A DNA stretch of 64,000 bases from Patescibacteria group bacterium (GCA_041649315.1 JBAZNJ010000002.1:64851-128850), one strand, 5' to 3'; shown: positions 16,394 to 45,475, counted from the first letter of the stretch. Notes: generated from the letters alone by a model not told the origin. Made by a program: numbers and translations.

Positions 16394-16687
16394 ATGGATT
16401 TAAAAGATGTTTCCAAGGATTTAACCAAGCAGACCGCTTATCGCTTAGAGCAGCGCTTTCTTCGTTTATTAAGGACAAATCCGCGTTATAAGAATTTAGA
16501 TGCCGGAAACCGGGATTTGATTTTAGATTTGCTTGATAAATATAAAGATAAGTTGCGCCATGGGATAAGACCGTCGCGCTTAACAATTAAGAAAGATATG
16601 TATCGCTTATATCGGAATCGTTTAGAATTAAAATTAACTTATAATGATTTAGATCAGATTCGGGATTTACTTGAAGAATTTAAATAA
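16394..16687 (+). CDS. Hypothetical protein (97 aa, basic, helical)
   Basis: ORF only. Its C-terminal LTYNDLDQIRDLLEEF resembles LTYKDKRDIKQVLKHLE in the next ORF. Confidence 0.45.
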   Translation: MDLKDVSKDLTKQTAYRLEQRFLRLLRTNPRYKNLDAGNRDLILDLLDKYKDKLRHGIRPSRLTIKKDMYRLYRNRLELKLTYNDLDQIRDLLEEFK

Positions 16688-16733
16688 ATGACCTGACCCC
16701 GTGGATTTGCCGCGGGGAAATAAATGAAAATAT

Positions 16734-26805: not shown

Positions 26806-26864
26806 AAGCTTCCTAATAAGAGATAGTTGATTGGAAAAAATATTATTTTTTGATAGCAATAACC

Positions 26865-28758: not shown

Positions 28759-30129
28759 ATGCCGAAGAAAAATTTAAAAAAAACAAAAAATTTGGCCGCT
28801 AAGACCAAGATTAAAAATAAAATGAAAACGAAAAAGACGACCAGCAAGCCGATTAAGGCTAAAAGTACGACCAAAAAAACTCCGGCGAAAAAATCTTTGG
28901 TAAAAGCTACGGCCAAGAAGTCGGCCGTCGCGCGCCCTAAGAGTAATAAGACAAAAAAGAAAAAATTGCCGAAGCGGAGCATCCGTTTGGTTAAAGTCGC
29001 GCCGCGTGATCGGGCGCCGCGGGAAATAAAGAAGCCGGGCGAAGAGAGCTTGAAAAAATTGATTGATAAGGGACGCTTACGCGGTTTTGTTACTGAAACC
29101 GAGTTGCTCTATCTTTTTCCGGAAGTTGAGGAATATGTTTATGATTATGATGTCTTTTTAGGCGAATTACAGAAAGCCGGTGTTAAGATTGAAGAAGATT
29201 CCGGTCGGATTTTAGATACGGCCGGGAAAAAAGTTCTTGACAAGCCCTTAAGTGCGAAAGCGGCGGCTCATCAGGCGGCCTTAAATGTCGATCTCTCAAA
29301 ACTCAGCGCTGATTCAATCCAGATGTATTTAAAAGAAATCGGCAAAGTGCCGCTTTTAACCAGTGCGGAAGAAACCGAATTGGCCAAGCGTAAGGAAGTC
29401 GGCGACAAAGAAGCGGAAAAAAAGATTATTGAAGCGAATTTGCGTTTAGTCGTTTCGATTGCTAAAAAATTCGCCGGCGCTAAAGGCATGAGTTTATTAG
29501 ATCTTATTCAGGAAGGAAATATTGGTCTGTTTCGGGCAGTGGAAAAATTTGAATATCGTAAAGGTTTTAAATTCTCGACTTACGCGACCTGGTGGATTCG
29601 CCAGGCGATTACGCGCGCTTTAGCCGATCAGTCGCGGACGATTCGAATTCCGGTTCATATGGTCGAAACGATTAATAAATTTCAGCAGGTCCAGCGTAAT
29701 TTGATCCAGGAATTAGGCCGCGAGCCCTTAGCCGATGAAATCGCCGCGGAGATGGGAGAGGAATTGGATAAGGTTCGGTATATCATGAAGATTTCCCAGG
29801 ATACGATTTCTTTAGAAACGACGATTGGCGATGATGAGGAAGATTCAACCTTAGAAGATTTTATTGAAGACGTAAAGAACGTGACGCCGGATCGCGCCGC
29901 CGCCCTACAGCTTCTGCGCGATTACGTCCGCAATATCGTGGCCCAGTTGTCGCCGCGCGAGCAGAAGATTTTAGAAATGCGTTTCGGCCTGGTTGATGGC
30001 GTGGCCCATACTTTAGAAGAAGTCGGCCAGGAATTTGAGGTTACGCGGGAACGGATTCGGCAGATTGAATCAAAGGCCTTGGAGAAAATCCGGAAGTTTA
30101 AGGGTTTGGAGAAGTTGAGGGATTATTAA
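28759..30129 (+). CDS. rpoD: RNA polymerase primary sigma factor with a K-rich N-terminal tail
   Basis: Regions 2-4 are present ([39 protein letters not shown]). dnaG-rpoD order fits. Confidence 0.95.
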
Positions 30130-30153: not shown

Positions 30154-32091
30154 ATGCATAAAAACCAGGGGCAGAAAAATAAAAAAAAGAAATGGCTTTA
30201 TATCGGCGGCGGAATTGTCGTTATTATTATTTTATTGGTTTGGCTAGGCGGGAAAAAGCCGGAGCCGGTTTATTCAACGGTTGAAGTCGTTCAAGGGGAA
30301 CTGGTCCAGACCGTAAGCGAGACCGGCACGATTAAGCCCTTACAAAAAATAGAATTAAATTTTCCGCAGACCGGGAAAATAGCTAAGATTTTAGTCCGGG
30401 TCGGGGATCGGGTTATAGCGGATCAGGTTTTAGCTGAGCTTGATTATTCCTCTTTACTTATCCGGGAACAAGAGGCCCAAGCCGCCTTGGATTTGGCTTT
30501 GGCTAATCAGGATAAATTAAAACGAGGCGCGACCGCGGCGGAAATCGCGGTTTTAGCGGCCCAGGTGAGCCAGGCTAAAGCCGCTTACGAGGGCGCGGCT
30601 AATGATTATGATAAGACCCGGGCCTCAGTCGCGGAAACTATAAACCAGGCTGAGAAAAAACTTAGCGACCTTGAAGACGAGACCGCGGCCACGCCAACGG
30701 CCTTAGAACAGGCCGTAGCGATTGCCCAGCTTAACCTTAATAATGGCCGGACCAGTTATCAGCAGGCGATTGATAACGCGGAAAATAATTTTTTAACCGC
30801 GGCCGATTATGATATCACGGTTGCTAATTCGGCGCTTGATAAAATTTTAACGATTTTAAACGATGATGATTTAGAAAATATTTTAAGCGTTAAGAATATT
30901 AGTTATAAAATCGCGACCGAGAACTATTATAACGATGCTAAAGATTTAAAAGCCGCCGCTGATAGTGCCTTAGCCGCGGCACGCTTGAGTGGGGCAGAGG
31001 CCGATTTTAATGCGCTTAATACTGCGGTAGCCGCCTATCTTAACGCTACTTTTCAGGCCTTGAATAATTGTTATAGCGCTTTAGAAAATACGATTACGAC
31101 TTCCGGAATGACTCAGACGGAATTAGACGCTTTTAAAACTACGGTTAATACCCAGATTACGGCAGTCAATACCGGCTTAAGCTCCTTGCAGACCGCGAAA
31201 TATAATCTGGATAATGCTTTTTTATCTTATAGTAATAATATCGCCTCTTTGACCCAGTCCTTGACTCAGGCCGAGGTTAATTTAAGCGAAGGGATTACTA
31301 CGGCTCGTAATTCCTTATCTTCCGCCCGACTCACTGGCGATAAGCAGATTGCGGCCGCGAAAACCGCGATGGAGGCGGCTAAGGAGGCCTGGGGCGTAGC
31401 GGATCGGCAATTGACGAAGTTAAAAGCGCCGGCCCGATCCGAGGATTTAAGTTCGGCTGAGGCCCAGGTGCGCCAGGCTCAATCTAATTTAGAACTGATC
31501 AAAAAACAGCAGGCCGACAGTGTTCTAAAATCGCCGATTGATGGGCAGATTGTCGCCCTTAATTATGAGGTCGGCGAACAGTTTTCCGGCGCTAAAGCGA
31601 TGTTTGAAATTTTAACTGAGAATAATTTTGAAATTGAGGCGGATATTTCCGAAACGGATATTTCTAAAGTTAAGATTGACGATCGGGCGATTATAACTTT
31701 TGATGCTTTAGGCGAAAGCCATAAATTTAAGGGCCGAGTGAGTGCGGTTGAACCGAGCGCGACCGTTATCCAGGGGGTGATTTATTATAAAGTCAAAGTC
31801 GCTTTAGAGCATCCGCCGGTCGGTGATCAAGAATACGAGGCTTATAGCCTGATCAAACCGGAAATGTCGGCCAACCTTGTGGTTTATACTGATAGCCGAA
31901 GCGGCGCGCTTTTAGTGCCGAGCCGGGCGGTTTTAGAGAAGAATGGCCAGGGAAATTTTGTCCGTATTCTTGACGGCAAGGATTTACGCGAAGTGCCGGT
32001 TACGATTGGTTTGCGCGGCGACGGCGGTTTAGTGGAAATAGTTAATGGCGATATCAAACTTGGAGAATTGGCTGTCACTTTTGTGAAGTAG
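30154..32091 (+). CDS. HlyD/MacA-family membrane-fusion (periplasmic adaptor) protein, 645 aa with a very long helical hairpin
   Basis: N-terminal TM, a lipoyl-like segment (IKPLQKIELNFPQTGKIAKILVRVGDRV ... SPIDGQIVALN) and a beta-barrel C-terminus. Confidence 0.85.
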   Translation: MHKNQGQKNKKKKWLYIGGGIVVIIILLVWLGGKKPEPVYSTVEVVQGELVQTVSETGTIKPLQKIELNFPQTGKIAKILVRVGDRVIADQVLAELDYSSLLIREQEAQAALDLALANQDKLKRGATAAEIAVLAAQVSQAKAAYEGAANDYDKTRASVAETINQAEKKLSDLEDETAATPTALEQAVAIAQLNLNNGRTSYQQAIDNAENNFLTAADYDITVANSALDKILTILNDDDLENILSVKNISYKIATENYYNDAKDLKAAADSALAAARLSGAEADFNALNTAVAAYLNATFQALNNCYSALENTITTSGMTQTELDAFKTTVNTQITAVNTGLSSLQTAKYNLDNAFLSYSNNIASLTQSLTQAEVNLSEGITTARNSLSSARLTGDKQIAAAKTAMEAAKEAWGVADRQLTKLKAPARSEDLSSAEAQVRQAQSNLELIKKQQADSVLKSPIDGQIVALNYEVGEQFSGAKAMFEILTENNFEIEADISETDISKVKIDDRAIITFDALGESHKFKGRVSAVEPSATVIQGVIYYKVKVALEHPPVGDQEYEAYSLIKPEMSANLVVYTDSRSGALLVPSRAVLEKNGQGNFVRILDGKDLREVPVTIGLRGDGGLVEIVNGDIKLGELAVTFVK

Positions 32092-32137
32092 AAGGGGTGT
32101 TAAAAGTATATAATCTTAAATTAGTTTAATATTAGAT

Positions 32138-32166
32138 AAAAAGCAACGAATAGTCGTTGCTTTTTG
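32138..32166 (+). terminator. Intrinsic terminator after the adaptor gene
   Basis: AAGCAACGA-atag-TCGTTGCTT followed by TTT. Confidence 0.65.
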
Positions 32167-32183
32167 TTTAGGAGAATGAAAAG

Positions 32184-32219
32184 TTGACTTATTATTTCTT
32201 TGTGGTATAATATTACCAC
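32184..32219 (+). promoter_or_regulatory. Sigma70-like promoter with extended -10, overlapped by an inverted repeat (candidate operator)
   Basis: TTGACT (32184-89), 16-nt spacer, TGgTATAAT (-10 at 32206-11). GTGGTA (32202-07) and TACCAC (32214-19) are inverted half-sites. Confidence 0.5.
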
Positions 32220-32259
32220 AGACATGACTTTTATTAAATTTTTATAAAATAAGTAAAAA

Positions 32260-32643
32260 ATGAATTTTATGACGAAAAACTTAAAAAGATTCGGCGCTCA
32301 GCTTAACAAGCTAAGGGCTGAAAGCGATTTAAGCATTCGTGAAGTGTGTAAATTAGTGAGCTACGATCCGAGCAATTGGAGTAAAATCGAAAGAGGATTA
32401 ATTTCTCCGCCGTCGGATGAAAAAGCTCTACTAACTTGGGCTAAAGCCCTAAAGGTAAAGAAAAATGATGTCCAAGGATTTCTGGATAATGCTCAGATCG
32501 CTCAGGGGATTATTCCCGACGACATCTTAGATAGGAAGGAAATGTTAGAGCTTATGCCGGCTTTTTTCCGAGTAATACGCAGTAAAAAATCAAGTAAGAA
32601 AGAGATTGATAATTTAATTAAACTTATAAAACAGGCCAATTAA
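32260..32643 (+). CDS. XRE-family helix-turn-helix protein (possible controller of the R-M locus)
   Basis: SIREVCKLVSYDPSNWSKIERG is a typical HTH_3 core. First gene of the island, same strand as hsdM. Confidence 0.75.
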   Translation: MNFMTKNLKRFGAQLNKLRAESDLSIREVCKLVSYDPSNWSKIERGLISPPSDEKALLTWAKALKVKKNDVQGFLDNAQIAQGIIPDDILDRKEMLELMPAFFRVIRSKKSSKKEIDNLIKLIKQAN

Positions 32644-32645
32644 GT

Positions 32646-32677
32646 AATGTTTAACCTTGCATAAACATTGCTTTTTT
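32646..32677 (+). terminator. Hairpin plus T-run between the HTH gene and hsdM
   Basis: AATGTTTA-accttgca-TAAACATT followed by gCTTTTTT. Confidence 0.5.
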
Positions 32678-32732
32678 GTAATTTTAGGGATAAAATTGAG
32701 ATAAGAGAATATAATTTCCATCTTATTTTTAT

Positions 32733-34184
32733 ATGTTTGAACAATCATTTAAAAATATTGATAACATTCTTCATACCGATTCCGGCTGCGGAACGGAGCT
32801 TGATTATGTAGAGCAAACTTCATGGATTTTATTTTTGAAATATCTTGATGATTTGGAAGAAGACAAAAAAAAGTCAGCTACCTTGTCCGGCAAAAGTTAT
32901 GAATATATTTTATCCCCAGAATATCGCTGGAACACTTGGGCTTGCCCAAAAAACGGCGGTGAAAAATTGGATCATAACAAAGCGCTGGATGGCGATGATC
33001 TGAAAGATTTTGTAAATAACAAACTTTTTCCTTATCTAAAAAAATTTAGAGCCGAAGACCCAAATACAATTGAATACAAAATTGGTGAGATATTTTCCGA
33101 ACTCAAAAATAAAATTTCCAGCGGATACAAACTCCGAGAAATTTTAAATATCGTTGATGATATGCATTTCCGGCTTTATGAAGAAAAGCACGAACTCTCT
33201 CATCTCTATGAAGCCAAAATCAAAAACATGGGAAACGCCGGACGAAACGGCGGTGAATATTACACGCCACGACCACTGATTAAAACGATTGTCAAAGTAG
33301 TGGATCCTAAAATCGGCGACACGATTTATGACGGCGCTTGTGGGAGTGCGGGATTTTTAGTGGAAGCCTACAAATATCTCACAGAAAATCAATCCAAACT
33401 GTCTTCAAGTCAAATGGCGACTTTGCAGACCAAAACTTTTTACGGCAAGGAAATCAAATCCCTCGCCTACATCATCGGCATTATGAATATGATTTTGCAC
33501 GGCATTGAAGCGCCGAATATCCGCCACACGAATACATTGGCGGAAAACATCAATGATATTCAGGGAAAAGACCGGTTTGACATCATCTTAGCTAATCCAC
33601 CCTTTGGCGCTGGTATTGGTCGCGAAATCCAACAAAATTTTCCTATCAAAACTGGCGAAACCGCTTTTCTGTTCTTGCAACATTTTATAAAGATTTTAAA
33701 AGCTGGCGGAAAGGCTGGAATTGTCATTAAAAATACTTTTCTTTCCAACACGGATAATGCCAGCGTATCGCTTCGCAAACTGCTTTTGGAAAATTGCAAT
33801 TTGCATACGGTTTTGGATTTGCCCGGAGGAGCTTTTCAAGGCGCGGGAGTAAAAACTGTAATTTTATTTTTTGAAAAAGGAGCGCCAACAAAAAAAGTTT
33901 GGTTTTATCAGCTTAATCTCGCACGCAATCTTGGCAAAGGGCAGCCCTTAAGTGAAACCGACTTGGCGGAATTTGTGGAGTTACAAAAAACGAAGGCGGA
34001 CAGCACAAATTCATGGTCAATAGATGTGAAAAATGTTGATCAAAATACTTTTGATTTATCGGTAAAAAATCCGAATAAAAATGACGAAGTAGTTTTAAGA
34101 GAGCCAAAAGAGATTTTGGAGGAGATGAATAAATTGGATTCAGAGAGTAAGAAAATTTTAGATAATATCAATCAATTTTTATAA
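32733..34184 (+). CDS. hsdM: Type I restriction-modification system, DNA methyltransferase subunit M
   Basis: HsdM_N-like N-terminus (DYVEQTSWILFLKYLDD), motif I DGACGSAGFL, motif IV NPPFG. Confidence 0.95.
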   Translation: MFEQSFKNIDNILHTDSGCGTELDYVEQTSWILFLKYLDDLEEDKKKSATLSGKSYEYILSPEYRWNTWACPKNGGEKLDHNKALDGDDLKDFVNNKLFPYLKKFRAEDPNTIEYKIGEIFSELKNKISSGYKLREILNIVDDMHFRLYEEKHELSHLYEAKIKNMGNAGRNGGEYYTPRPLIKTIVKVVDPKIGDTIYDGACGSAGFLVEAYKYLTENQSKLSSSQMATLQTKTFYGKEIKSLAYIIGIMNMILHGIEAPNIRHTNTLAENINDIQGKDRFDIILANPPFGAGIGREIQQNFPIKTGETAFLFLQHFIKILKAGGKAGIVIKNTFLSNTDNASVSLRKLLLENCNLHTVLDLPGGAFQGAGVKTVILFFEKGAPTKKVWFYQLNLARNLGKGQPLSETDLAEFVELQKTKADSTNSWSIDVKNVDQNTFDLSVKNPNKNDEVVLREPKEILEEMNKLDSESKKILDNINQFL

Positions 34185-34186
34185 TT

Positions 34187-35452
34187 ATGGATAATACTGA
34201 ACAAAAAATTAAATGCCCTAAATGTGGAGAATCAATCTCGATTGATGATGTTTTGACGCACCAAATTGAGGAAAAAATTAAAAAAGATTTTGAAACAAAA
34301 CAAAAGGTAAAAGAGGCGGAGTTAGAACAGAAAGAAACAGATTTAAAGAAACAAGCTGATGCGCTTGCCACGAGTAAAAAAGAAATTGATTCGGTCGTCG
34401 CAAAGCAAGTAGACGATAAGATGGGCAAAGAAAGATTAAAGCTATACAAAGAGGCAAAGACAGAGGCAGAAAAAGAGCAAAATGTAAAAACAGCCCTTCT
34501 TGAAGAACAACTCAAAAATAAAGAAGAAAAATTGGCTCAAGCGACAAAAAATGAGATCGAATTACGCAAAGAAAAAATAAAACTGGACGAGGAAAAACAG
34601 GCATTCGAACTAGAGAAAATGAGACAATTGGAAGAAGCAAAAAAGACAATCGTTGAAGAGGCAAACAAGAAAGCAACCGAGGAACAGCAATATGTTATTG
34701 CACAACTAAAAAAACAGCTAACCGATGCGACAAAGGCCAAAGATGATTTGGCTAGAAAGCTTGAACAAGGATCACAACAAACACAGGGTGAAGTTTTGGA
34801 ATTAGAGCTTGAAGAAATCTTAAAAGCAGAATTTCCACAGGATGAAATTGTGCCGGTGCCGAAAGGCGTTAAAGGTGCCGATGTTATTCATAAAATCATT
34901 GATCGATCCGGTGGCTTATGTGGGCAGATAATTTGGGAATCGAAAAAAACCAAAGCATGGAGCGAAGGATGGATTCAAAAACTTAAAGATGATCAACGCG
35001 CAATTAAGGCTGATTTAGCGGTAATTGTATCAATAGTTTTACCGACAGACGTAAAAGGATTTTCGCTTCGTGACGGTGTTTTTGTTTGTGATGTAAAGTT
35101 GGCTATCAATTTAGCTTCTTTACTAAGATACGATTTATTAAAAGTTTCCGAAGCGAACAGAGCTTTAACTGGGAAAGACGAAAAAAGAGACGTGGTTTAC
35201 GCTTATGTAAACAGTGTAGATTTCAAGCAAAGAATTCAAACTATTGCGGAAGCTTTTATTGAAATGAAAAATGATATTGATAAAGAAAAAAGATCATATC
35301 AAGCCATTTGGGCAAAGAGAGAAAAACAAGTTCAAAGAGTTATAGATAATACGTTCGGAATTTATGGCGATTTAAAAGGCTTAACTGGTGGCACTATGCA
35401 AGAAATTAAATTGCTTGAGTTGGGTGAAGGCGAAAATGAAGAAAATAAATAA
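34187..35452 (+). CDS. DUF2130-like protein: zinc-ribbon-like N-terminus, long K/E coiled coil, C-terminal PD-(D/E)xK-like module
   Basis: KCPKCGESISIDD; about 200 aa of heptad-like K/E/Q repeats; GADVIHKI...GQIIWESKKTK. Family name is from memory. Confidence 0.7.
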   Translation: MDNTEQKIKCPKCGESISIDDVLTHQIEEKIKKDFETKQKVKEAELEQKETDLKKQADALATSKKEIDSVVAKQVDDKMGKERLKLYKEAKTEAEKEQNVKTALLEEQLKNKEEKLAQATKNEIELRKEKIKLDEEKQAFELEKMRQLEEAKKTIVEEANKKATEEQQYVIAQLKKQLTDATKAKDDLARKLEQGSQQTQGEVLELELEEILKAEFPQDEIVPVPKGVKGADVIHKIIDRSGGLCGQIIWESKKTKAWSEGWIQKLKDDQRAIKADLAVIVSIVLPTDVKGFSLRDGVFVCDVKLAINLASLLRYDLLKVSEANRALTGKDEKRDVVYAYVNSVDFKQRIQTIAEAFIEMKNDIDKEKRSYQAIWAKREKQVQRVIDNTFGIYGDLKGLTGGTMQEIKLLELGEGENEENK

Positions 35453-35478
35453 TATTATTAATAATTAACTTAAACAAT

Positions 35479-35802
35479 ATGAACAATTATCAAAATTTTT
35501 TAAATGCAATAGATCAAAAGAAAATTATAAAAGTTAAATTTAATTCTCAAGAAAAAGGAATGATTGAACGAGATTGCGTTCCGTTTGATTTTGGACCATC
35601 AAGAAGAAATCTTTCACCGAATCCAGACAGGTATCATTTGTATGATCTCAATAGCCCGGATGGAAGCCACAATTTATCCATTTTGCCTGAACAAATTATT
35701 ATAATAGAAATCACAAGTCAGAGTTTTGAGCCAGCAGATTATATAACATGGCAACCGCCATATAATTGGTTTATTGCTCGTGATTGGGGTGCTTATTCAT
35801 AA
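35479..35802 (+). CDS. Hypothetical small soluble protein (107 aa)
   Basis: ORF only. The pattern ERDCVPFDF...YHLYD...LSILPEQIIIIEIT..F.P is faintly WYL/SH3-barrel-like (speculative). Confidence 0.5.
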   Translation: MNNYQNFLNAIDQKKIIKVKFNSQEKGMIERDCVPFDFGPSRRNLSPNPDRYHLYDLNSPDGSHNLSILPEQIIIIEITSQSFEPADYITWQPPYNWFIARDWGAYS

Positions 35803-35805
35803 ATT

Positions 35806-37704
35806 ATGTTTTTATCAAAATTCATCATCTTAAATAATAAAAGTTGCAAAAATATTAATCTTGCTCAGTCTAAAACTGAACCGGAAGTTTTAATTGGTAT
35901 AAATGATTGTGGTAAATCAACTATATTGAAATCTTTGGATGTTTTTTTTGATGAGAAAAAAAGTCTTAATTTTCTTCGAGAAGACCAGCAAAAAAGTGAT
36001 TTTTCTAACTCGCCACTTAATGAAGAAGAATTTAATCAAATATTGAACGATAACACTTATCCATCATTTCAAAAGTATTCCGGAAATATAATCGGAATTT
36101 TATGCGAATTTGAATTAGAAGAAGCTGATAAAACAGATACTGATTTTCAAGATAGTGCAAAAAATACGCATTTAAAATGGGCAATTGGAGATTCTGATAA
36201 AATTGCTATCTTACGCATTTTCCATGATAACTCTGACGGAAGTCAAAATTTAACTGGGTATTATTTATTGACCAATGATTATAAAAAAGATGAAAATTTT
36301 ATAGAAGCATGGAGCAAAACTAAAGATGGTTTAAAAAAAATCCGCAAAGACCTTGATGTAAAAGATGAAGATGTAACAAATGAAAATGGCAAAGGACCTT
36401 TTAAGAATATCGAAGAAATAAGAGCTATTTATAAAAAAGTTGAAACCGATTTGAAGCCGACATGGTTTTTATACAAAGATTTTTCTAGAGACAAAACATT
36501 TTTCCCAAGTTTTAAGTATCTTAACTGGGATTTTTCTCTAAAAGATTTAGAAGATATGGCCACAGAGGCCATGAATGAAGTAACGAGTCCATTGCTCGGA
36601 GAAATAAAAGCATTAGCATCGACAAAGCAAGCCGAAGCAGTTGAAGGCGTAAATAATAAATTTGACGAATTAATGGGCGATCTGAAAGATGAATTGCCTT
36701 CAAGCATAAAAAAAATTAGCTCCTCTGTGTTTTTTAATGTTAACCAAAAAATTACTGATATAAAATTAACAAAAGAGAATGTGGATGGTGAGGTGCATAT
36801 TGATAATCAAGGCGATGGAATAAAAAGACAAATTTGGTTCGCATTATTAAAATGGCGTAGTAAACTACCCGCAAGCGAAATAAAAAGAAATAAATATGTT
36901 TGGTGTTTTGATGAGCCAGAAACACATTTGTATCCGTCGGCGCAAAGACAGCTTTTTAGTACTTTCCGCGATATGTGCGAGAAAGAATTTCAAATTTTAT
37001 TAAGCACTCATTCCACGGTATTTATTGATAGAACAAAAATCAACAATATTAATAAAGTTGTTTTAAATGATGGCTATTCCGTAATTAATAAAACAGATAG
37101 CATAGATGATATTTTTGATTGCTTGGGTTTGCAGAACAGTGATTTTTTATTTTTTGATAAATTTCTTGCCGTTGAAGGACCAACCGAATATGAATTGATT
37201 CCAAAATTGTATAAATTAAAATTTGGCAAAACCTTAATTGAAGATGGAATTCAATTGATAAATTTAAAAGGTAAATCGCAATGTCAAAATCATAAGCAAA
37301 TTTTAGAAGATATTTTGTCAAAATTTCAAAAGACTGACGACAAAATTTATTATTTATTTGATACTGATACGGGAATCACAAGTACAACAAATATTTGCAC
37401 TTTAGGTGCTTATGATATAGAAGATTTAATTCCAAACAATATATGGATAAAATTCGTTAAAGATAATTGCGATATTGATATTACGGAATCAATTTTGAAT
37501 GATGAGATACGAGCAAAATTAGCGGGTGAACGAAACAAGAAATTTTATAAATTACTTAGAGATTATGTAGCAAATAATGTTGTAGATGATAAATATTTAC
37601 CATCAAAAGGTAGCGATTCTGGATCACTATTAGCAGAATGTTTTACCGATAAAAAAGAAATACCAACCAGTATTAGTGATTTTTTTGACTGTATAAATAC
37701 ATAA
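35806..37704 (+). CDS. OLD-family nuclease (N-terminal ABC-type ATPase plus C-terminal Toprim)
   Basis: Walker A GINDCGKST, Walker B/D-loop WCFDEPETHLYP, H-loop LLSTHS, Toprim AVEGPTEYE and LFDTDTG. Confidence 0.8.
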   Translation: MFLSKFIILNNKSCKNINLAQSKTEPEVLIGINDCGKSTILKSLDVFFDEKKSLNFLREDQQKSDFSNSPLNEEEFNQILNDNTYPSFQKYSGNIIGILCEFELEEADKTDTDFQDSAKNTHLKWAIGDSDKIAILRIFHDNSDGSQNLTGYYLLTNDYKKDENFIEAWSKTKDGLKKIRKDLDVKDEDVTNENGKGPFKNIEEIRAIYKKVETDLKPTWFLYKDFSRDKTFFPSFKYLNWDFSLKDLEDMATEAMNEVTSPLLGEIKALASTKQAEAVEGVNNKFDELMGDLKDELPSSIKKISSSVFFNVNQKITDIKLTKENVDGEVHIDNQGDGIKRQIWFALLKWRSKLPASEIKRNKYVWCFDEPETHLYPSAQRQLFSTFRDMCEKEFQILLSTHSTVFIDRTKINNINKVVLNDGYSVINKTDSIDDIFDCLGLQNSDFLFFDKFLAVEGPTEYELIPKLYKLKFGKTLIEDGIQLINLKGKSQCQNHKQILEDILSKFQKTDDKIYYLFDTDTGITSTTNICTLGAYDIEDLIPNNIWIKFVKDNCDIDITESILNDEIRAKLAGERNKKFYKLLRDYVANNVVDDKYLPSKGSDSGSLLAECFTDKKEIPTSISDFFDCINT

Positions 37705-37705
37705 T

Positions 37706-38902
37706 ATGAACAAAACCGATAAAACTAACTGGCAAACAAAAAAACTCGGTGAAGTTTGTGATATTGGCGCTGGAAATTCCGCTCCACAAAAAAAAGAGTA
37801 TTTTGTTGATGGAGTTTATCCATTTTTTAGAACTTCCGATATTGGTCAGATTCATATTGGAAGAATTACAGAATCCTCTGATTACCTTAATGAAAAAGGG
37901 ATTAAAGGTTTAAAATTATTCAATAAAGGAACAATTCTTTTGCCAAAGAGCGGCGCTTCGACCTTTCTCAATCATCGAGTTGTTTTGGACATAGATGGTT
38001 ATGTTTCCAGTCACTTGGCGACAGTAAAAACGGATGAAAAAGTTTTAAACAATAATTATTTATTTTACTTTTTACAAGAAGTTAAAGCTCAAGACTTAAT
38101 TCAGGATCACAAGTATCCATCTCTAAATTTGCCAGTGATAGGAAATATCGAAATTTCTTATCCAAAATCCCTCCCCGAGCAACACCGCATTGTCAAAATT
38201 TTGGATGAGGTTTTTGCGGATGTGGCGAAGGCGAAAGAAAATGCGGAAAAAAATCTCCAAAACTCCAAAGAACTTTTTGAGTCGTATTTGCAGAGGGTTT
38301 TTGCAAATCCGGGGCATGATTGGGAAGAGAAAAGATTGGGCGAAGCTTACGATGTCCGTGACGGAACTCATGATTCGCCAAAATATCAAAAAGAGGGCTA
38401 CGCTTTAATTACTTCAAAAAATCTCAAAAGAGATGAACTAGATTATCAAAAGATTAAGTACATCTCGGAAAAGGATTACAAAAAAATTAATGAACGAAGC
38501 AAGGTACACAAGGGAGACATTTTATTTGCAATGATTGGCACCATCGGTAATCCTGTTGTGATAAAAACAGAACCAGACTTTGCTATAAAAAACGTTGCTT
38601 TATTTAAAATACCAAAAGAACAAAACAGCTATTTTCTCAAATACTTTTTAGATTCAAAATTTGTTATTGATAAAATGATGAGTGAAGCCAAAGGAACAAC
38701 TCAAAAATTTGTTGGTTTAGGCTATTTAAGAAATTTCAAAATTCAATTACCAAAATTAGACGAACAAAAATCCATCGTCGCTAAACTAGACGCGCTTTCT
38801 GCTGAAACCAGAAAACTGGAAACGATTTACCAACAAAAATTAACTGATTTAGAGGAGCTGAAAAAATCAGTCCTTAAACGAGCCTTTAATGGCGATTTAT
38901 AA
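37706..38902 (+). CDS. hsdS: Type I R-M specificity subunit S (two target-recognition domains)
   Basis: Duplicated TRD plus conserved helices (LPEQHRIVKILDEVF... and LDEQKSIVAKLDALS...); starts with WQTKKLGEV. Confidence 0.93.
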   Translation: MNKTDKTNWQTKKLGEVCDIGAGNSAPQKKEYFVDGVYPFFRTSDIGQIHIGRITESSDYLNEKGIKGLKLFNKGTILLPKSGASTFLNHRVVLDIDGYVSSHLATVKTDEKVLNNNYLFYFLQEVKAQDLIQDHKYPSLNLPVIGNIEISYPKSLPEQHRIVKILDEVFADVAKAKENAEKNLQNSKELFESYLQRVFANPGHDWEEKRLGEAYDVRDGTHDSPKYQKEGYALITSKNLKRDELDYQKIKYISEKDYKKINERSKVHKGDILFAMIGTIGNPVVIKTEPDFAIKNVALFKIPKEQNSYFLKYFLDSKFVIDKMMSEAKGTTQKFVGLGYLRNFKIQLPKLDEQKSIVAKLDALSAETRKLETIYQQKLTDLEELKKSVLKRAFNGDL

Positions 38903-38914
38903 TAAAATAAACTT

Positions 38915-41203
38915 ATGAACGAATCAGAAACAAGAGCCGAATATATTGACCCAAAACTTAAAGCGAGCGGTTGGGGTGAAATTGAGGGGTCAAAGGTTCT
39001 GCGCGAATTTCGCATTACTGACGGCAAAATTCAAACAGGTGGCACAAGAAGCAAGCCGGAGATTGCCGACTATATTTTGGTGTATAAAAATCAAAAGATT
39101 GGTGTGATAGAAGCCAAAGCCGAGGGTTTGGCTGTCACCGAAGGAGTGGCGCAAGCCAAAGCGTATGCCGAGAAACTGCATATTGATTATACCTACGCCA
39201 CCAATGGTAAAGAGATTTACGCGATATCCATGAAAACCGGCGAGGAAGGCGAGATTGCCGACTTCCCAACTCCTGACGAACTTTGGAATAATACTTTTGC
39301 GGATTGGAGCGAATGGAAAGAAAAATTTGCGAGCGTTCCCAACGAAGGTGAATACGGCAAAAGATATTATCAGGAAATTGCCATCAATAATGTTTTAAAT
39401 GCGGTAGCGGAAGAAAAAGATAGAATACTTTTGACAATGGCTACTGGAACCGGAAAAACCGCCGTTGCTTTTCAAGTCGCTTGGAAGCTTTTTCAAACTC
39501 GCTGGAATTTAAAACGAGACGGCGCGCGAAGACCGCGAATTTTGTTTTTAGCCGACCGGAATATTTTAGCCGATCAAGCGTTTAACACTTTTTCCGCTTT
39601 TAATGAAGACGCGTTGGTTCGTATTAATCCTTTAGATATTCGTAAAAAGGGCGGGGTGCCGATGAGCGGTAGCGTTTATTTTACAATCTTCCAAACTTTC
39701 ATGAGCGGTCCGAACGGTACGCCGTATTTCGGCGATTATCCGCCAGATTTTTTCGATTTTATTATTATTGACGAGTGCCATCGCGGCGGCGCGAATGACG
39801 AGAGTAATTGGCGCGGGATTTTGGAATATTTTTCGCCGGCGGTTCAGCTTGGTTTGACTGCCACGCCGAAACGGCAAGATAATATTGATACTTATAAATA
39901 TTTTGGCGAACCGGTTTATACTTATTCGCTAAAAGAAGGCGTAAATGACGGATTTTTAACGCCGTTTAAAGTCAAGAGAATTAAAACAACACTAGATGAT
40001 TATGTTTACACCTCGGACGACCAGATTATTGAGGGTGAAGTAGAAGAAGGTAAAATCTATGAAGAGCCGGATTTCAATAAAATTATTGTTATCAAAGAGC
40101 GTGAAGCCAAAAGGGTGCGAGTTGTTTTGGATGAAATAAACCAGAATGAGAAAACAATTATTTTTTGCGCTACGCAAGATCATGCTTTAGCTGTTCGTGA
40201 TTTGGTAAATCAAATGAAAGAAAGTAAAGATCCAAATTATTGTGTAAGAGTAACAGCTAACGACGGCGCGCGCGGAGAACAATTTTTGCGAGAATTTCAA
40301 GACAATGAAAAAACAATCCCCACAATTTTAACCACTTCTCAAAAACTTTCTACCGGCGTAGACGCGCGAAATATCCGCAATATCGTTTTAATGAGACCGG
40401 TCAATTCAATGATTGAGTTTAAACAAATTATCGGTCGTGGAACTAGGCTTTTTGACGGCAAGGAATATTTTACCATTTATGATTTTGTTGATGCTTATAA
40501 GCATTTTTCCGATCCGGAATGGGATGGTGAGCCGATTGATGAAACGACCGAGAAAGAACCGCGTGAATCAAGAGAAAAATGTATTAAAGAGCCATTGTCA
40601 GAATCACTGGAAGAGCCAAAGAAGAAATTAAAAATCAAATTACGCGACGGCAAAGAACGGGAAATCCAGCATATGATCGCCACTTCTTTTTGGGGTACCG
40701 ACGGGAAGCCGATTTCGGCCGAAGAGTTTTTAAAAAATATTTTTGGAACTTTGCCGGAATTTTTTAAGAATGAGGAAGAGCTAAGAAAAATCTGGGCCAA
40801 TCCGGCAACCAGAAAAATGTTTTTGGAAAAAATGTCGGAGTTGGGCTACGATCGAGAAAAATTAGAAAATTTACAAATAATGGTTAACGCCGCTGACAGC
40901 GATTTGTTTGATGTTTTAGCTTATATCTCTTTCGCGATCCAACCGATTACGCGAGTTGAAAGAGTTAGCGAAGTTAAAAAGATTATTTTTGAGAAATTGA
41001 ATGATAAAGAAAAAGAGTTTTTGAATTTTGTATTAACGAAATATATTGAAAAAGGGTTTGAAGAGCTGGACGAAGAGAAATTGCCGGTTTTATTAAATCT
41101 GAAATATAACGCCATCGCCAATGCTGAACAAAAGCTCGGCGATGTGGAAAAAATCCGTTCAATTTTTTTCTCCTTTCAGAAGAAGCTATATATGAAAGTG
41201 TGA
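38915..41203 (+). CDS. hsdR: Type I R-M restriction subunit R (EcoEI-like, 762 aa)
   Basis: HSDR_N-type start NESETRAEYIDPKLKASGW, helicase motifs ATGTGKT and DECHRG, EcoEI_R_C-like tail (DSDLFDVLAYISF). Confidence 0.95.
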   Translation: MNESETRAEYIDPKLKASGWGEIEGSKVLREFRITDGKIQTGGTRSKPEIADYILVYKNQKIGVIEAKAEGLAVTEGVAQAKAYAEKLHIDYTYATNGKEIYAISMKTGEEGEIADFPTPDELWNNTFADWSEWKEKFASVPNEGEYGKRYYQEIAINNVLNAVAEEKDRILLTMATGTGKTAVAFQVAWKLFQTRWNLKRDGARRPRILFLADRNILADQAFNTFSAFNEDALVRINPLDIRKKGGVPMSGSVYFTIFQTFMSGPNGTPYFGDYPPDFFDFIIIDECHRGGANDESNWRGILEYFSPAVQLGLTATPKRQDNIDTYKYFGEPVYTYSLKEGVNDGFLTPFKVKRIKTTLDDYVYTSDDQIIEGEVEEGKIYEEPDFNKIIVIKEREAKRVRVVLDEINQNEKTIIFCATQDHALAVRDLVNQMKESKDPNYCVRVTANDGARGEQFLREFQDNEKTIPTILTTSQKLSTGVDARNIRNIVLMRPVNSMIEFKQIIGRGTRLFDGKEYFTIYDFVDAYKHFSDPEWDGEPIDETTEKEPRESREKCIKEPLSESLEEPKKKLKIKLRDGKEREIQHMIATSFWGTDGKPISAEEFLKNIFGTLPEFFKNEEELRKIWANPATRKMFLEKMSELGYDREKLENLQIMVNAADSDLFDVLAYISFAIQPITRVERVSEVKKIIFEKLNDKEKEFLNFVLTKYIEKGFEELDEEKLPVLLNLKYNAIANAEQKLGDVEKIRSIFFSFQKKLYMKV

Positions 41204-41226
41204 GGAATATAAAAAAAGAAATAAAT

Positions 41227-41454
41227 ATGAAATGTACGTATAATTATCAAAAAATTGCCGCTGCTATGTTGAGCGAGGTCGGCAACACGTTATCTACTTC
41301 GAAGATAGTTGAGCTCGTTAGAAAAAAATTCCCTGAAGTCAAAAGAAGTGTTATTTTGCCTGGTGATTATTGTAATAATCACGAGAATAAAGATCCGTTT
41401 TCTAGCAGGCACTACATATTTAAAAAAAGGGGTATGGACAATATGAAGTTTTAA
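41227..41454 (+). CDS. Hypothetical small protein trailing hsdR (75 aa from ATG 41227; the track ORF begins at 41200)
   Basis: ORF only, same strand, immediately after hsdR. Possible winged-helix-like segment (speculative). Confidence 0.4.
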   Translation: MKCTYNYQKIAAAMLSEVGNTLSTSKIVELVRKKFPEVKRSVILPGDYCNNHENKDPFSSRHYIFKKRGMDNMKF

Positions 41455-41528
41455 ATAAATATGCAATTTTAAATAAAATTGAGGTTTTGCGTCGCGGTTA
41501 TAACGGCATCGGAAAATAATTTATTTAT

Positions 41529-41726
41529 ATGTCAAATATAATTTTCATAACAATTATAATATTAGCCATTGTATTAATAATATGGTTAGTTTCCATGATT
41601 TTTTCTAAGAGATTTTGGAAAGCCGTGAAAGAGCGTATTTTTACAGAAATAGTTAAATACGTTGGTAAAATATTTTTTATTTTAATAATTTTAGCGGTTA
41701 TCATTTTAGTTACAATATTTTCATAA
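41529..41726 (+). CDS. Possible small two-TM membrane protein (65 aa)
   Basis: ORF only. Very AT-rich, and an equally long antisense ORF exists. Confidence 0.3.
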   Translation: MSNIIFITIIILAIVLIIWLVSMIFSKRFWKAVKERIFTEIVKYVGKIFFILIILAVIILVTIFS

Positions 41727-41769
41727 ATACCCATCTATAACTCCTCACTTTTCATATCAATCATCCTCT

Positions 41770-42129
41770 ATGCGCATCTGGGATCTTGATCCGAAATATC
41801 TCTGCCGTCAACATCTTTTAGCCGAACATCGCGAACTGCATGGGCTTTGGAATATTCTGACTATCCATCAGGGCCGGGGCGGCTATTCGCGTCATCCGGA
41901 AACTCTGCGCTGGGTCGGGAAAACGCGCGCACTCTACGAACGGCATGAGGCCTTAGTTAAGGAATTCGCCCGTCGCGGCTATAAACATCACTCACCGCTG
42001 GATAAGCGCCTGGCGAAGGGCCAGAGCCGCCAGACGGCCTATCTTAACACAATAGCCGAGCAAAAAGTGATACTTAAGAAAAAACCCTGCGCCTGCCTTT
42101 TGCATACTAAAAAGTCTGCCGCGGGTTAA
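41770..42129 (+). CDS. Pyrimidine-dimer DNA glycosylase (T4 endonuclease V / DenV family)
   Basis: MRIWDLDPKYLCRQHLLAEHRELHGLW...HPETLRW...RHEALVKEF..RGYKH match the family signature from memory. Confidence 0.85.
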   Translation: MRIWDLDPKYLCRQHLLAEHRELHGLWNILTIHQGRGGYSRHPETLRWVGKTRALYERHEALVKEFARRGYKHHSPLDKRLAKGQSRQTAYLNTIAEQKVILKKKPCACLLHTKKSAAG

Positions 42130-42198
42130 TGTTTTTCGTGTGCTAAAAAGTCCGCCGTGAGTTAAATTTTTGCGTGTTTAAAAAACTCCGCGGGTTAA
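42097..42198 (+). repeat. Three tandem ~33-36-nt repeats, each ending in TAA; the first is the 3' end of the glycosylase gene
   Basis: Units are 42097-42129, 42130-42165 and 42166-42198. Core is YTAAAAAGTCYGCCGYGRGTTAA. Confidence 0.75.
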
Positions 42199-42210
42199 TT
42201 AAAAGTTTTT

Positions 42211-42507
42211 ATGTTAATGAATAATTATTTTTTTTCCATTCTAATCATCTTCGGCTTAATAAACCTCCTCGCTTTTTTAATCATGGCCGCGGATAAGATA
42301 AAATCAAGCCGGCCGGACGCGCCGCGGATTTCCGAAGGGAAGTTGTTTTTTATGGCGACCGCTTTTGGCGCGCTCGGCGTTTATCTCGGCATGTTCACTT
42401 TCCGGCATAAGACGCGGAAATGGTATTTTCTAGCCGGCATTCCGCTTCTAATCGTCCAGAACGCAGCGACGGCCTATTTGGTTTACTTATTGATTATTTC
42501 CTCTTAG
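42211..42507 (+). CDS. DUF1294-family membrane protein
   Basis: MAADKIKS...PRISEGKLF..A.FGALGVYLGMFTFRHKTRKWYF motif. Confidence 0.8.
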   Translation: MLMNNYFFSILIIFGLINLLAFLIMAADKIKSSRPDAPRISEGKLFFMATAFGALGVYLGMFTFRHKTRKWYFLAGIPLLIVQNAATAYLVYLLIISS

Positions 42508-42625
42508 AGTATTCGGCGGCGCCCATTTAAAGTAAAAGTAAAATAAATTTTTATAAAATATTTATCTTAGTTTTAACCTCGATACCTTATAATAGAATTG
42601 ATTTAATTTTAATTCTATTAAAGAT

Positions 42626-43051
42626 ATGGAGGATTTTTTAATTCAAAACCAAAAGGAAAATGATTTCGCGGATTGGGCAAAACTAAAATCTAAAATTCAT
42701 TTTCATCATGATGAGAATAAGATATATTTTAAAAATAGAGAAATTTGGTGGGCGAGCTTGGGGGTTAATATTGGAAAAGAGGAAAATGGGAAGAATGGAA
42801 GATTCGAGCGGCCGGTTTTGATATTAAATAAAATAAATAAATATACGCTAATCATTGTTCCTTTATCAAGTAAAATTAAGCAAGACAGATTCCATTATCA
42901 ATTACTTGTTAATAATCGGTTTGAATCAGTTTTGATTTTTCAAGTCCGGACGATTAGCAGTAAAAGATTGAGTCGTAAAATCGGATGTTTGGATAAGATT
43001 AGTTTTCAAGAAGTGAAAGATAAAATTAATTCTATTTTCGCTTGTAATTAA
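42626..43051 (+). CDS. PemK/MazF-fold toxin-like protein with no adjacent antitoxin ORF
   Basis: REIWWASLGVNIGKEENG...RPVLIL...LIIVPLSSK matches the MazF/PemK pattern. The 118-bp upstream spacer has no ORF. Confidence 0.7.
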   Translation: MEDFLIQNQKENDFADWAKLKSKIHFHHDENKIYFKNREIWWASLGVNIGKEENGKNGRFERPVLILNKINKYTLIIVPLSSKIKQDRFHYQLLVNNRFESVLIFQVRTISSKRLSRKIGCLDKISFQEVKDKINSIFACN

Positions 43052-43165
43052 AAAGAACCCCCGGTTGGGGATTCTTGAGACTTATCATCACTGATAAGCC
43101 CAAAAACGAAACGGCTCCCAAAAACATTCGCAAAGGTTTGGAGCCTCGGAGGCCTAAGCCCGTAT
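43052..43165 (-). ncRNA. Candidate ~115-nt small RNA, convergent with the MazF-like gene
   Basis: Minus strand: promoter, then three hairpins (GGCUCC/GGAGCC, CUUAUCA/UGAUAAG, GAAUCCCC/GGGGGUUC), the last followed by UCUUUU as an intrinsic terminator. The A-run/T-run orientation fits the minus strand only. Confidence 0.4.
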
Positions 43166-43200: not shown

Positions 43201-43402
43201 CGATGTTCGTGGGCTTGAACGCTGAATTTTTTTAATCATTTTTTTCAAGCGTTTGCGCTCACCTCATAAATAGGTTAAAATTAGGGTGTAAACGGGGGCG
43301 CTGTTGAATGCCGTTTTCGTTCTAAGCCCCTATATTAGCATTATTAATAAATGTTATTTTCCCCTAATTTTTTATATTTTAGCAAATTTTGTAAAATATT
43401 TT

Positions 43403-44116
43403 ATGCTTATCCAAATAAAAAATCTGATTAAAAATTACCAGACCGACGAGCTTATCACGCCGGTGCTTCATGACTTGTCTTTTGATATTGAGGCCGGAGA
43501 ATTTGTCTCAATCATGGGGCCTTCCGGTTCGGGCAAGTCAACGCTGATGCATATCCTCGGCCTGCTTGACCGGCCGACTGAGGGTTCTTATAAGCTTAAT
43601 AACCGCGAAGTCGGCTCTTTAAGCGATGATCAACTCGCCGTTTATCGTAATGAAAAAATCGGTTTTGTTTTCCAATCCTTTAATCTTCTGCCCCGCACGA
43701 CTGTTTTGGAAAACGTGGAATTGCCGCTTTTTTATTCGGCTCATCATGAGCACGCCGCCGCCCGCGCGAAAAAAGTTTTAGAAGCGGTCGGTCTCGGCCA
43801 TCGCCTTGATTATTATACGAACCAGATTTCCGGCGGCGAAAAACAGCGCGTGGCGATTGCTCGGGCTTTAGTTAATGATCCGGACGTTATTTTCGCGGAT
43901 GAACCGACCGGCAATCTTGACTCTAAATCCGGTATCCAGATCATGGAAATTCTCCAGAATTTAAACGAAGAAGGCCGGACGATTATTTTAGTAACCCATG
44001 AAACCTATACCGCCGAACACGCGAAGCGGATTATCCGTCTTAAAGACGGAAAAATAACTTCCGACCATGTTGTTGCCAGCCGCCGCCGTGCCAAGGACGG
44101 GGAATTGTTGAAATAA
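43403..44116 (+). CDS. ABC transporter ATP-binding protein, MacB/LolD type
   Basis: [24 protein letters not shown] and ADEPTGNLD motifs. I start at ATG 43403 (MLIQIKNL) rather than the track's 43304. Confidence 0.93.
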
Positions 44117-44126
44117 TTAATACCTT

Positions 44127-45383: not shown

Positions 45384-45475
45384 AAGTTTAGCCGCAGAAA
45401 TAGAAACTCGGTTATTAATAAAAATTATATAGTTATAATTAAGAAACCTGATTATAAACAGAGCGTTGAAATAAT

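Follow-up and report, generated by a model that had tools for sequence, protein, structure and literature searches.

An OLD-family nuclease gene preceded by a small WYL-like gene in an exchangeable slot of a type IB restriction-modification operon from a Patescibacteria group bacterium

A 64,000-nucleotide stretch of DNA from a Patescibacteria group bacterium (GCA_041649315.1, JBAZNJ010000002.1:64851-128850; hereafter the window, with positions counted from its first letter) carries an open reading frame (ORF) at 35806-37704 on the plus strand, which starts at ATG and encodes a 632-residue nuclease of the OLD family. This gene lies inside a type I restriction-modification (R-M) operon, as a preliminary description made from the sequence had proposed, and the R-M set of this operon is complete and intact. 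In order, and all on the plus strand, the operon comprises hsdM (32733-34184), encoding a 483-residue methyltransferase subunit (Pfam N6_Mtase, 5e-65, and HsdM_N, 1e-9; PADLOC MTase_I, 2.8e-160); a gene for a 421-residue DUF2130 protein (34187-35452; Pfam PF09903, 206.7 bits against a cut-off of 26.7); a 107-residue ORF (35479-35802) whose product is modelled as a stand-alone WYL-like beta-barrel; the OLD gene; hsdS (37706-38902), whose 398-residue product has two target-recognition domains (two stretches of Methylase_S, 5e-35; PADLOC Specificity_I, 1e-51); and hsdR (38915-41203), whose 762-residue product belongs to the EcoAI, or type IB, family (NCBIfam NF046051, restrict_EcoAI, 829 bits against a cut-off of 550; Pfam ResIII, EcoEI_R_C and HSDR_N_2). 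The OLD gene is packed tightly between its neighbours, beginning 3 nucleotides after the 107-residue ORF ends at 35802 and ending 1 nucleotide before hsdS starts at 37706.

The preliminary description had placed a set of ATPase and nuclease motifs in this protein, all of which were recovered at the same positions by script. The ABC ATPase part (35806-37026, residues 1-407), including an inserted region typical of the family, contains the Walker A motif GINDCGKS (residues 31-38), a signature-like GDGIKRQ (336-342), FDEPE (368-372) within a Walker B segment spanning 365-372, and LLSTHS (398-403), which includes the H-loop STHS (400-403). The Toprim nuclease core (37147-37428, residues 448-541) contains AVEGPTEYE (455-463) and FDTDTG (518-523), with E457-G458, D519-x-D521 and D537/E539/D540 as its conserved residues. 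A C-terminal helical region follows up to and including the stop codon (37429-37704, residues 542-632), with modelled helices over 544-631 and two invariant lysines, K579 and K601. In an alignment of 20 sequences extending down to 37% identity, the ATPase residues K37, Q335/G336/G338, D369/E370 and H402 are invariant, as are the Toprim residues E457/G458, D519/D521 and D537/E539/D540.

Several independent comparisons agree on the family. Pfam AAA_15 matches residues 1-407 over positions 1-374 of its 374-position profile (1e-33), AAA_21 also matches, and OLD-like_TOPRIM matches residues 448-503 (5.5e-9; 36.9 bits against a cut-off of 23.2). The best PADLOC model is 'Old' (7e-38), with the GajA models scoring well below it and the AriA match confined to the generic AAA_15 part. 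A sequence search of the PDB returned a single match, the OLD protein of Thermus scotoductus (TsOLD, 6p74). Homologues at E <= 1e-5 numbered 369 among the 8000 candidates scored, all 120 of the homologues listed have the same three Pfam domains, and an identical protein is on record from a Patescibacteria metagenome-assembled genome (MAG). An AlphaFold (AF2) model built from the 20-sequence alignment has a mean predicted local distance difference test score (pLDDT) of 84, and its best Foldseek matches in the PDB are GajA (8u7i_A, 1.3e-15), TsOLD (6p74, 2.8e-15) and the OLD protein of retron Eco8 (9lpa_B, 2.9e-12), all with full-length alignments; the global template modelling (TM) scores to these solved OLD structures are low, at 0.3-0.4, which we attribute to differing domain orientations. 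Since the Pfam and PADLOC matches, the PDB sequence match, the conserved residues and the model all agree on OLD, the possibility that would have overturned the call, namely a non-OLD member of the AAA/ABC ATPases without a Toprim fold, does not apply, and the assignment is far beyond chance. From its conserved residues, the protein is predicted to be catalytically intact, with an ABC ATPase at its N-terminus and a Toprim nuclease at its C-terminus.

The Walker A motif of this protein is widely separated from its signature and Walker B motifs, and the intervening stretch of about 300 residues had been described as a long insertion, probably helical and comparable to the coiled coils of SMC/Rad50-like ATPases. 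While the spacing is real, it represents the ordinary layout of OLD proteins and not an added insertion, because a single uninterrupted AAA_15 match extends from Walker A to the H-loop and because P2 Old and TsOLD are built alike. The motifs are 338 residues apart in the window OLD and 268 in P2 Old, the protein on which the family was founded (Walker A at residue 31, Walker B at residue 299), and Walker B of TsOLD aligns at about residue 274, so that the window protein exceeds both by about 70-90 residues. In the model this region is a mixture of five strands (95-103, 132-140, 151-161, 216-222 and 235-240) and helices (173-182, 201-211 and 245-292), the longest single helix being 36 residues (257-292), and there is no long coiled coil. 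A special SMC/Rad50-like coiled-coil insertion is thus ruled out. A review of the family describes a dimerisation domain inserted in the ABC ATPase of both class 1 and class 2 proteins (PMC10568477), to which this region would correspond.

The operon was compared with near-identical and related operons elsewhere (other loci are identified below by L-numbers). In L001 and L004, with OLD proteins 92% and 85% identical to that of the window, the gene order is hsdM-DUF2130-OLD-hsdS-hsdR and the 107-residue ORF is absent. L102 has no OLD gene at all and reads hsdM-AntA-DUF2130-hsdS-Fic-hsdR, with HsdM, the DUF2130 protein and HsdR 88%, 96% and 84% identical to their counterparts in the window. L107 (1138-6951) has a Gabija system in the same slot, in the order DUF2130-BroN-GajA-like OLD-UvrD helicase-hsdS-Schlafen/AlbA_2-hsdR. 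On DNA alignment, homology among these operons stops exactly at the stop codon of the DUF2130 gene, and identity across them is only 37-58% for hsdS as against 82-96% for hsdM and hsdR. The swapping of slot contents, the end of homology at the DUF2130 stop codon and the divergence of hsdS together argue for OLD as the cargo of a slot prone to recombination, and against its being part of the type I enzyme. The earlier suggestion that expression of OLD is locked to the specificity subunit accordingly reduces to co-transcription at most, the slot being empty in L102 and filled by Gabija in L107, and OLD genes of the same clade occurring outside R-M loci altogether (L008, L010, L012 and L020-L024). 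In this lineage the hsdM-hsdS junction and the hsdS-hsdR junction alike act as sites for cargo.

To place the window OLD among its relatives, we combined a scan of one genome per species, which gave 78 loci, with metagenomic look-ups, and obtained 38 distinct loci of a clade that includes the window; gene contexts were assigned by tblastn, clustering and Pfam scans. Members of this clade are 620-660 residues long, share 33-92% identity and come from Patescibacteria, Bacteroidota, Gammaproteobacteria, Chloroflexota and Verrucomicrobiota. A phylogeny with reference sequences of all four OLD classes had been proposed as a check; our neighbour-joining distance tree, which is rough, has no bootstraps and leaves out class 3 and class 4 references, sets the clade apart from P2 Old, YbjD and GajA. 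By BLAST the window OLD is 28% identical to P2 Old over 181 residues and 27% identical to a GajA-like protein over 129 residues, and its match to E. coli YbjD has an E value of 1. On these sequence comparisons, we assign it to a distinct and previously uncharacterised OLD clade. A tblastn search of plasmids returned only matches of about 25% identity, and PHROGs returned only a family of unknown function.

For this clade, placement in an R-M operon is not as unusual as the preliminary description had supposed, with 13 of the 38 loci lying in or beside R-M systems. Ten belong to type I hsd operons or are attached to them (the window, L001, L004, L015, L017 with L040, L026, L030, L034, L039 and L045), while L005 abuts a fused nuclease-methylase with a separate S subunit that we read as IIB-like, L028 abuts a Type ISP-like system and L029 an Eco57I-like (IIG) system. 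Other members adjoin different defence genes: SIR2-HerA and Wadjet (L031), a Septu-like pair (L042), Gabija (L041), a Mrr-STAND protein (L019) and an LRR-TIR protein (L025). Still others sit among housekeeping genes (L020, L022, L023, L024, L033 and L044), in four cases (L020, L023, L024 and L033) without any of the partner genes discussed below. On the long contigs of L008, L010, L012, L020, L023, L024 and L033, no R-M gene was found within about 9 kb of OLD.

Two contigs of one gammaproteobacterial MAG (L040:7716-8853 and L017:4-6498) are apparent halves of a single locus, reading hsdM-KTSC-OLD on the one and OLD-265-residue ORF-hsdS-hsdR on the other. Here OLD again lies between hsdM and hsdS, and its 58-67% identity to the window OLD at this same relative position implies transfer across phyla. 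In a Staskawiczbacteria-like MAG lineage, OLD (L015, 72% identical to the window protein) is placed after hsdR-YgjP.

OLD genes of this clade are often preceded by a small gene. In 17 of the 36 clade loci with upstream sequence, the gene directly 5' of OLD encodes either a homologue of the 107-residue protein of the window or a KTSC-domain protein. The 107-residue protein has no match in Pfam, PADLOC or PHROG, and a PDB search with its profile found nothing, but its AlphaFold (AF2) model (pLDDT 86) consists of one helix and a five-stranded barrel, the Sm/SH3-like barrel fold of WYL domains. All 25 of the best Foldseek matches in the PDB are WYL domains, including those of BrxR (7qfz, 7e-4), PafBC (6sj9), CapW (7tb5/9c5g) and DriD (7tzv), at TM scores of about 0.5. 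At the sequence level the link is not significant: Pfam WYL (PF13280) does not match the window protein at E <= 10 and matches the L063 homologue at 0.031, under the cut-off, while hhalign gives a weak alignment (E 0.012, probability 3.5%) with a neighbouring WYL protein that Pfam does recognise. We therefore call the protein WYL-like by its modelled fold only. It is unlikely to be a transcription factor, since it has no helix-turn-helix (HTH) domain.

At 50% identity this small family falls into 348 clusters, drawn from 1.84 billion representatives, and the best 150 of these clusters are mostly about 100-115 residues long, with none above 207 residues and no sign of fusion to larger domains. 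Across phyla its members are 55-63% identical, a conservation that exceeds that of OLD itself. Homologues lie directly upstream of clade OLD genes in L008, L010 and L012 and of sister-group OLD genes in L093 and L063. They also lie directly 5' of large ABC-type ATPases that are not OLD proteins, in L095:8001-10598, L184:6001-8575 and L186:6001-8913; these are about 730 residues long in L095 (weak SMC_N) and L184 (SMC_N-like, with no Pfam match on record), and in L186 a 784-residue AAA_13 protein. This pattern suggests that pairs of a 107-residue-type protein and a large ATPase make up a broader family of two-gene modules. The pairs of L184 and L186 each adjoin a gene of serine-recombinase type (Recombinase/Zn_ribbon_recom domains), and in L185 a homologue lies beside Gabija inside another hsd operon. 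The Staskawiczbacteria-like lineage has, apart from its OLD gene, a further cluster (L098-L101:7026-12916) in which a gene of the 107-residue family has a Dam-type methyltransferase on one side and an MmeI-type IIG enzyme on the other, and is followed by 172-residue and 341-residue (weak HATPase_c) proteins; this cluster contains neither OLD nor an ATPase of the kinds just described.

In 13 clade loci the WYL-like gene is replaced, directly upstream of OLD, by one for a 70-residue KTSC-domain protein. According to PMC9503650, KTSC binds DNA and partners HerA-like defence ATPases; in PDB entry 8wiv it is fused to HerA. At L031 of Pedobacter nanyangensis (6459-18432), SIR2-HerA and a split-off KTSC are followed by a 72-residue ORF, a clade OLD, a 346-residue PDDEXK_15-like protein and Wadjet JetABC. 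The KTSC gene of this locus was rejected as an OLD partner, as it overlaps the end of the HerA gene and KTSC and HerA are fused in 8wiv.

The DUF2130 gene is the second recurrent companion. Its product has an N-terminal CPxC motif, a coiled-coil region and a C-terminal domain of PD-(D/E)XK type, consistent with the placement of DUF2130 in that superfamily by Steczkiewicz et al. 2012 (PMC3424549), and D232, E251 and K253 are invariant in our alignment. It has no PADLOC match, and a PDB sequence search with its profile gave spurious matches only. DUF2130 adjoins OLD in 8 of the 38 clade loci, in three gene orders, and in 5 more its place is taken by a 343-residue protein with a borderline PDDEXK_15 match, giving a neighbour of PD-(D/E)XK type in 13 of 38. 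The window order is DUF2130-WYL-OLD; L010 (Saccharimonadales) and L012 (likely Bacteroidota, judging from Por_Secre_tail neighbours) have WYL-OLD-DUF2130, L021 has KTSC-OLD-DUF2130, L005 has DUF2130-KTSC-OLD, and L029, L039 and L045 have KTSC-OLD followed by the 343-residue protein. As a general partner of OLD, DUF2130 can be ruled out: among 80 metagenomic loci seeded on DUF2130 it is overwhelmingly a stand-alone gene and has almost no OLD neighbour. In the hsd lineage of the window it is kept in all four variants, including L102, which lacks OLD. The tie of DUF2130 to OLD is thus real but facultative, given that the gene mostly stands alone and persists where OLD is missing. Within this OLD clade, the 107-residue ORF and DUF2130 are recurrent partners, which the preliminary description had missed.

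The organization of the window cluster bears on how these genes are expressed. All genes of the cluster are co-oriented, and from hsdM onward the gaps between them are -4 to +26 nucleotides. The best sigma-70-like promoter match of the region (32184-32211, plus strand; TTGACT, a 16-nucleotide spacer and TGnTATAAT), which is a consensus match only, agrees at 11 of 12 positions and has an extended -10 TG. Terminator-like matches are no commoner than chance, with 9 found against 7.3 expected from shuffled sequence. The tight gaps, the one strong promoter-like site and the lack of a terminator excess make it likely that the cluster is co-transcribed from a promoter upstream of a 127-residue Xre-type HTH protein gene (32260-32643, plus strand; Pfam HTH_31, 8.5e-10; PADLOC capH, 2e-5; PHROG transcriptional repressors). 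Where its gene lies, and the parallel with R-M controller proteins and RptR-type regulators (PMC12255303), make this HTH protein the likely regulator of the island. At the other end, an 84-residue ORF with a GTG start (41200-41454, plus strand) overlaps the end of hsdR by 4 nucleotides and, on the strength of that overlap, may be a further small member of the operon; its match to DUF7225 (26.3 bits) is under the cut-off of 27. We also considered a MADS system and rejected it, the NCBIfam scores for MAD2, MAD3 and MAD5 being far under their cut-offs.

The cluster lies on a low-GC island of about 11 kb (approximately 32100-43100), made up of the R-M genes, OLD and a tail of small genes. GC content is 29-40% over 32-43 kb, compared to 42-47% in the flanks; OLD has the lowest value of the cluster (29.4%), while hsdM and hsdR are at 38-40%. 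The island separates an HlyD/MacA-type gene (30154-32091) from an ABC ATPase gene and two MacB-type permease genes (43304-46735), and in L005 an ABC_tran gene comes immediately after an HlyD-like one. The island splits what looks like a single HlyD-ABC-MacB transporter operon, and we count this, together with the low GC content of OLD, in favour of a foreign origin. The island tail encodes a T4 DenV-like pyrimidine-dimer DNA glycosylase (41770-42129; Pyr_excise, 5e-26), a DUF1294 protein (42211-42507) and a MazF/PemK toxin with an N-terminal extension of about 36 residues (42626-43051), beside which no obvious antitoxin gene was identified. Upstream of the transporter genes and the island lie dnaG primase (26850-28745) and an rpoD-type sigma factor gene (28759-30129), in the classic dnaG-rpoD order. 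PADLOC reports the sigma factor as 'MzaA' (2e-60), a match covering only generic sigma-70 regions, which we take for a false positive as regards defence.

Gene neighbours are the basis of the published OLD classes, namely stand-alone genes, pairs with a UvrD helicase (Gabija), retrons, the split PARIS system and archaeal Cran1, and eleven clades are uncharacterised (PMC12796447). The window OLD shares several features with class 1 (P2 Old, the Thermus scotoductus OLD 6P74, Vibrio cholerae Vc OLD and E. coli YbjD): it is a single polypeptide with an inserted ATPase region and a Toprim E...DxD arrangement, it has no helicase or reverse-transcriptase partner, TsOLD is among its top two structural matches and 'Old' is its best PADLOC model. 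It differs from class 1 in its remote sequence, in its Walker A-Walker B spacing and in forming a separate clade in the neighbour-joining tree. Moreover, class 1 genes are described in the OLD literature as standing alone without conserved neighbours, a description that fits L020, L023, L024 and L033 but not the clade as a whole, given its small upstream gene, its PD-(D/E)XK-type neighbour and its R-M linkage.

With Gabija (GajA-GajB, class 2) the window shares an OLD-fold ATPase-Toprim protein in a multi-gene defence setting, GajA being the best PDB match and Gabija itself occurring in the slot of L107 and beside a gene of the 107-residue family in the hsd operon of L185. The differences are the low identity to the GajA-like protein and the weaker PADLOC GajA scores, and no UvrD-type helicase is present over 32-43 kb of the window, where HsdR is the sole helicase. 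Regarding class 3, no reverse-transcriptase domain was found in the neighbouring ORFs, a result that covers the protein component of a retron, as the msr-msd non-coding RNA was not searched for. PARIS (class 4), in which an OLD-type ABC ATPase, AriA, works with a Toprim nuclease, AriB, has the two as separate proteins, whereas they are fused in the 632-residue protein of the window; a second-line system triggered by an anti-restriction protein is a likeness in concept only.

Similar in arrangement are defence modules embedded, co-oriented, within restriction loci: HEC-04 (Hma), PrrC (EcoprrI), TgvAB (in a V. cholerae type I R-M system) and DarTG2 (in a type I R-M system of enteropathogenic E. 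coli). HEC-04, an ABC ATPase-TOPRIM fusion, combines the two domains seen in the window OLD and depends on its Walker A and Toprim sites alike. The best 25 of the 84 PADLOC matches to the window OLD include 'Old', AriA, GajA, PtuA and HEC-01A (8e-11), and HEC-04 is not among these 25. The window genes are distinguished by their place between hsdM/DUF2130 and hsdS, not between hsdS and hsdR, by the accompanying WYL-like and DUF2130 genes, and by a host of the candidate phyla radiation (CPR). For the 107-residue protein, the relevant comparison is with the WYL sensors BrxR, CapW, PafBC and DriD, whose fold it matches; its gene lies directly beside a defence effector, but the protein lacks their HTH and WCX domains and is missed by the Pfam WYL model. 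A WYL protein, WYL1, also serves as an accessory of Cas13d. KTSC partners of HerA-type ATPases offer a parallel for the clade loci with KTSC in the position upstream of OLD, which the WYL-like type occupies in the window. According to the titles of their PDB entries, the WYL domains of CapW, DriD and PafBC bind single-stranded DNA.

Taken together, we consider it fairly probable that the WYL-like and OLD genes constitute an autonomous, mobile, second-layer defence cassette in the cargo slot of the type IB R-M operon, co-transcribed with it. Transcription of the HTH, hsdM, DUF2130, WYL-like, OLD, hsdS and hsdR genes would start at the promoter in front of the HTH gene, and this one transcript would supply R-M and OLD jointly, as two defence layers. 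Precedents for such layering are TgvAB, DarTG2, PrrC and the HEC systems, which are embedded in type I R-M, Hma and BREX loci. The OLD protein, by analogy with TsOLD, BpOLD, GajA and Vc OLD, would dimerise through the region inserted in its ATPase, and binding or hydrolysis of ATP would gate a two-metal Toprim site that nicks or degrades invading, replicating (phage) DNA. The WYL-like protein, having no HTH, may be a small sensor of nucleic acid or of a ligand that modulates the ATPase, a role suggested by its modelled fold and by the WYL domains that bind single-stranded DNA. In this arrangement OLD would not be a subunit of the type I enzyme.

Some observations weigh against so independent a cassette. 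Linkage to R-M, at 13 of 38 loci and with four R-M types, is above what simple co-location in islands might predict, so a functional tie to R-M is kept as a possibility. The closest relatives, L001 and L004, lack the WYL-like gene, which must therefore be dispensable or replaceable. The allegiance of DUF2130 is ambiguous, as it accompanies the hsd lineage but is also paired with OLD away from R-M loci (L010, L012, L021 and L028). CPR bacteria are episymbionts whose phage biology is little known. Finally, Payne et al. observed no defence when they assayed HEC-01, a related embedded pair of ATPase and TOPRIM proteins.

The tie to R-M could take a specific form, in which OLD, with or without its partners, is silenced by an intact Hsd complex or triggered by anti-restriction proteins or DNA mimics, and provides back-up cleavage of nucleic acid. 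Precedents for such a guard exist: PrrC, found almost only inside type I R-M systems, is held by EcoprrI; PARIS, Gabija and Zorya II sense Ocr; and BREX systems have taken up OLD-ABC and TOPRIM modules, which are proposed to counteract Ocr. The extremely tight junctions on both sides of OLD, the spread of R-M linkage over type I, IIB-like, Eco57I-like IIG and Type ISP-like systems, and the repetition of the hsdM-to-hsdS placement in the gammaproteobacterial MAG fit this analogy. On the other hand, seven clade members on long contigs have no R-M gene nearby, the sister operon L102 functions as a locus without OLD while L107 holds a different system in the slot, and the R-M types involved have no common subunit for OLD to read, save N6-methyltransferase and S-like modules. 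We consider such a guard, the main rival reading, unlikely. A requirement for three genes, in which OLD forms an obligate machine with a small beta-barrel partner of WYL-like or KTSC type and a PD-(D/E)XK nuclease (DUF2130 or the 343-residue protein), none being active alone, would define a new multi-gene OLD class; it overlaps the other readings and seems doubtful. The trio does recur in different orders and phyla (the window, L010, L012, L021, L005, L029, L039 and L045), and DUF2130 is found beside OLD in this clade far more than among the loci seeded on DUF2130. However, the PD-(D/E)XK neighbour is present in only about a third of loci and the small upstream gene in about half, L001 and L004 do without the latter, OLD stands alone among housekeeping genes in four loci, and DUF2130 is both overwhelmingly a stand-alone gene and present in the hsd lineage where OLD is not.

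A further reading, which we regard as tentative but conceivable, takes the window as one case of a multi-gene OLD class not yet described, in which the small stand-alone nucleic-acid-binding barrel (WYL-like, interchangeable with KTSC) licenses OLD, the PD-(D/E)XK nuclease assists, and the module, nested preferentially in R-M systems, fires when restriction fails or is inhibited. If so, the 107-residue family, as it also precedes AAA_13 and SMC_N-like ATPases, would be a general sensor subunit for ABC-type defence ATPases. A role outside defence, whether in chromosome maintenance or repair in a reduced genome or as an addiction module stabilising the island, appears very improbable. The archaeal OLD Cran1 illustrates that housekeeping roles are possible for OLD proteins (PMC12796447), and the island tail does hold pyrimidine-dimer glycosylase and MazF toxin genes, but Cran1-type genes are vertically inherited and conserved, a pattern not seen here. 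Instead, the patchy distribution of the clade, the 29% GC content of the gene, its presence or absence in near-identical operons and its defence-island neighbours point to accessory, horizontally moving defence cargo, in keeping with the favoured reading of a second-layer cassette.

Finding an ABC ATPase-Toprim gene nested inside a restriction operon is itself in line with the established theme of 'guilt by embedding' and no surprise; what is new here is the OLD clade, its partner genes and the exchange of slot contents. Our literature search found no paper linking OLD with DUF2130, KTSC or a stand-alone WYL-like protein, although earlier work on the classification of ABC ATPases may cover related neighbourhoods, and most full-text matches to 'KTSC' were acronyms for other things. 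With this locus, one of the uncharacterised OLD clades can be recognised by the small WYL-like or KTSC gene in front of OLD, by its PD-(D/E)XK neighbour and by how often it is nested in R-M systems. The locus also provides a natural experiment, in which near-identical type IB operons hold nothing, OLD, WYL-like plus OLD, or Gabija in one slot, so that cooperation with restriction becomes testable. The WYL-like family, with its 348 clusters and no annotation, is a candidate sensor subunit for several ABC-type defence ATPases. For the host, the arrangement would amount to layered, nested immunity in a small-genome lineage of the Patescibacteria.

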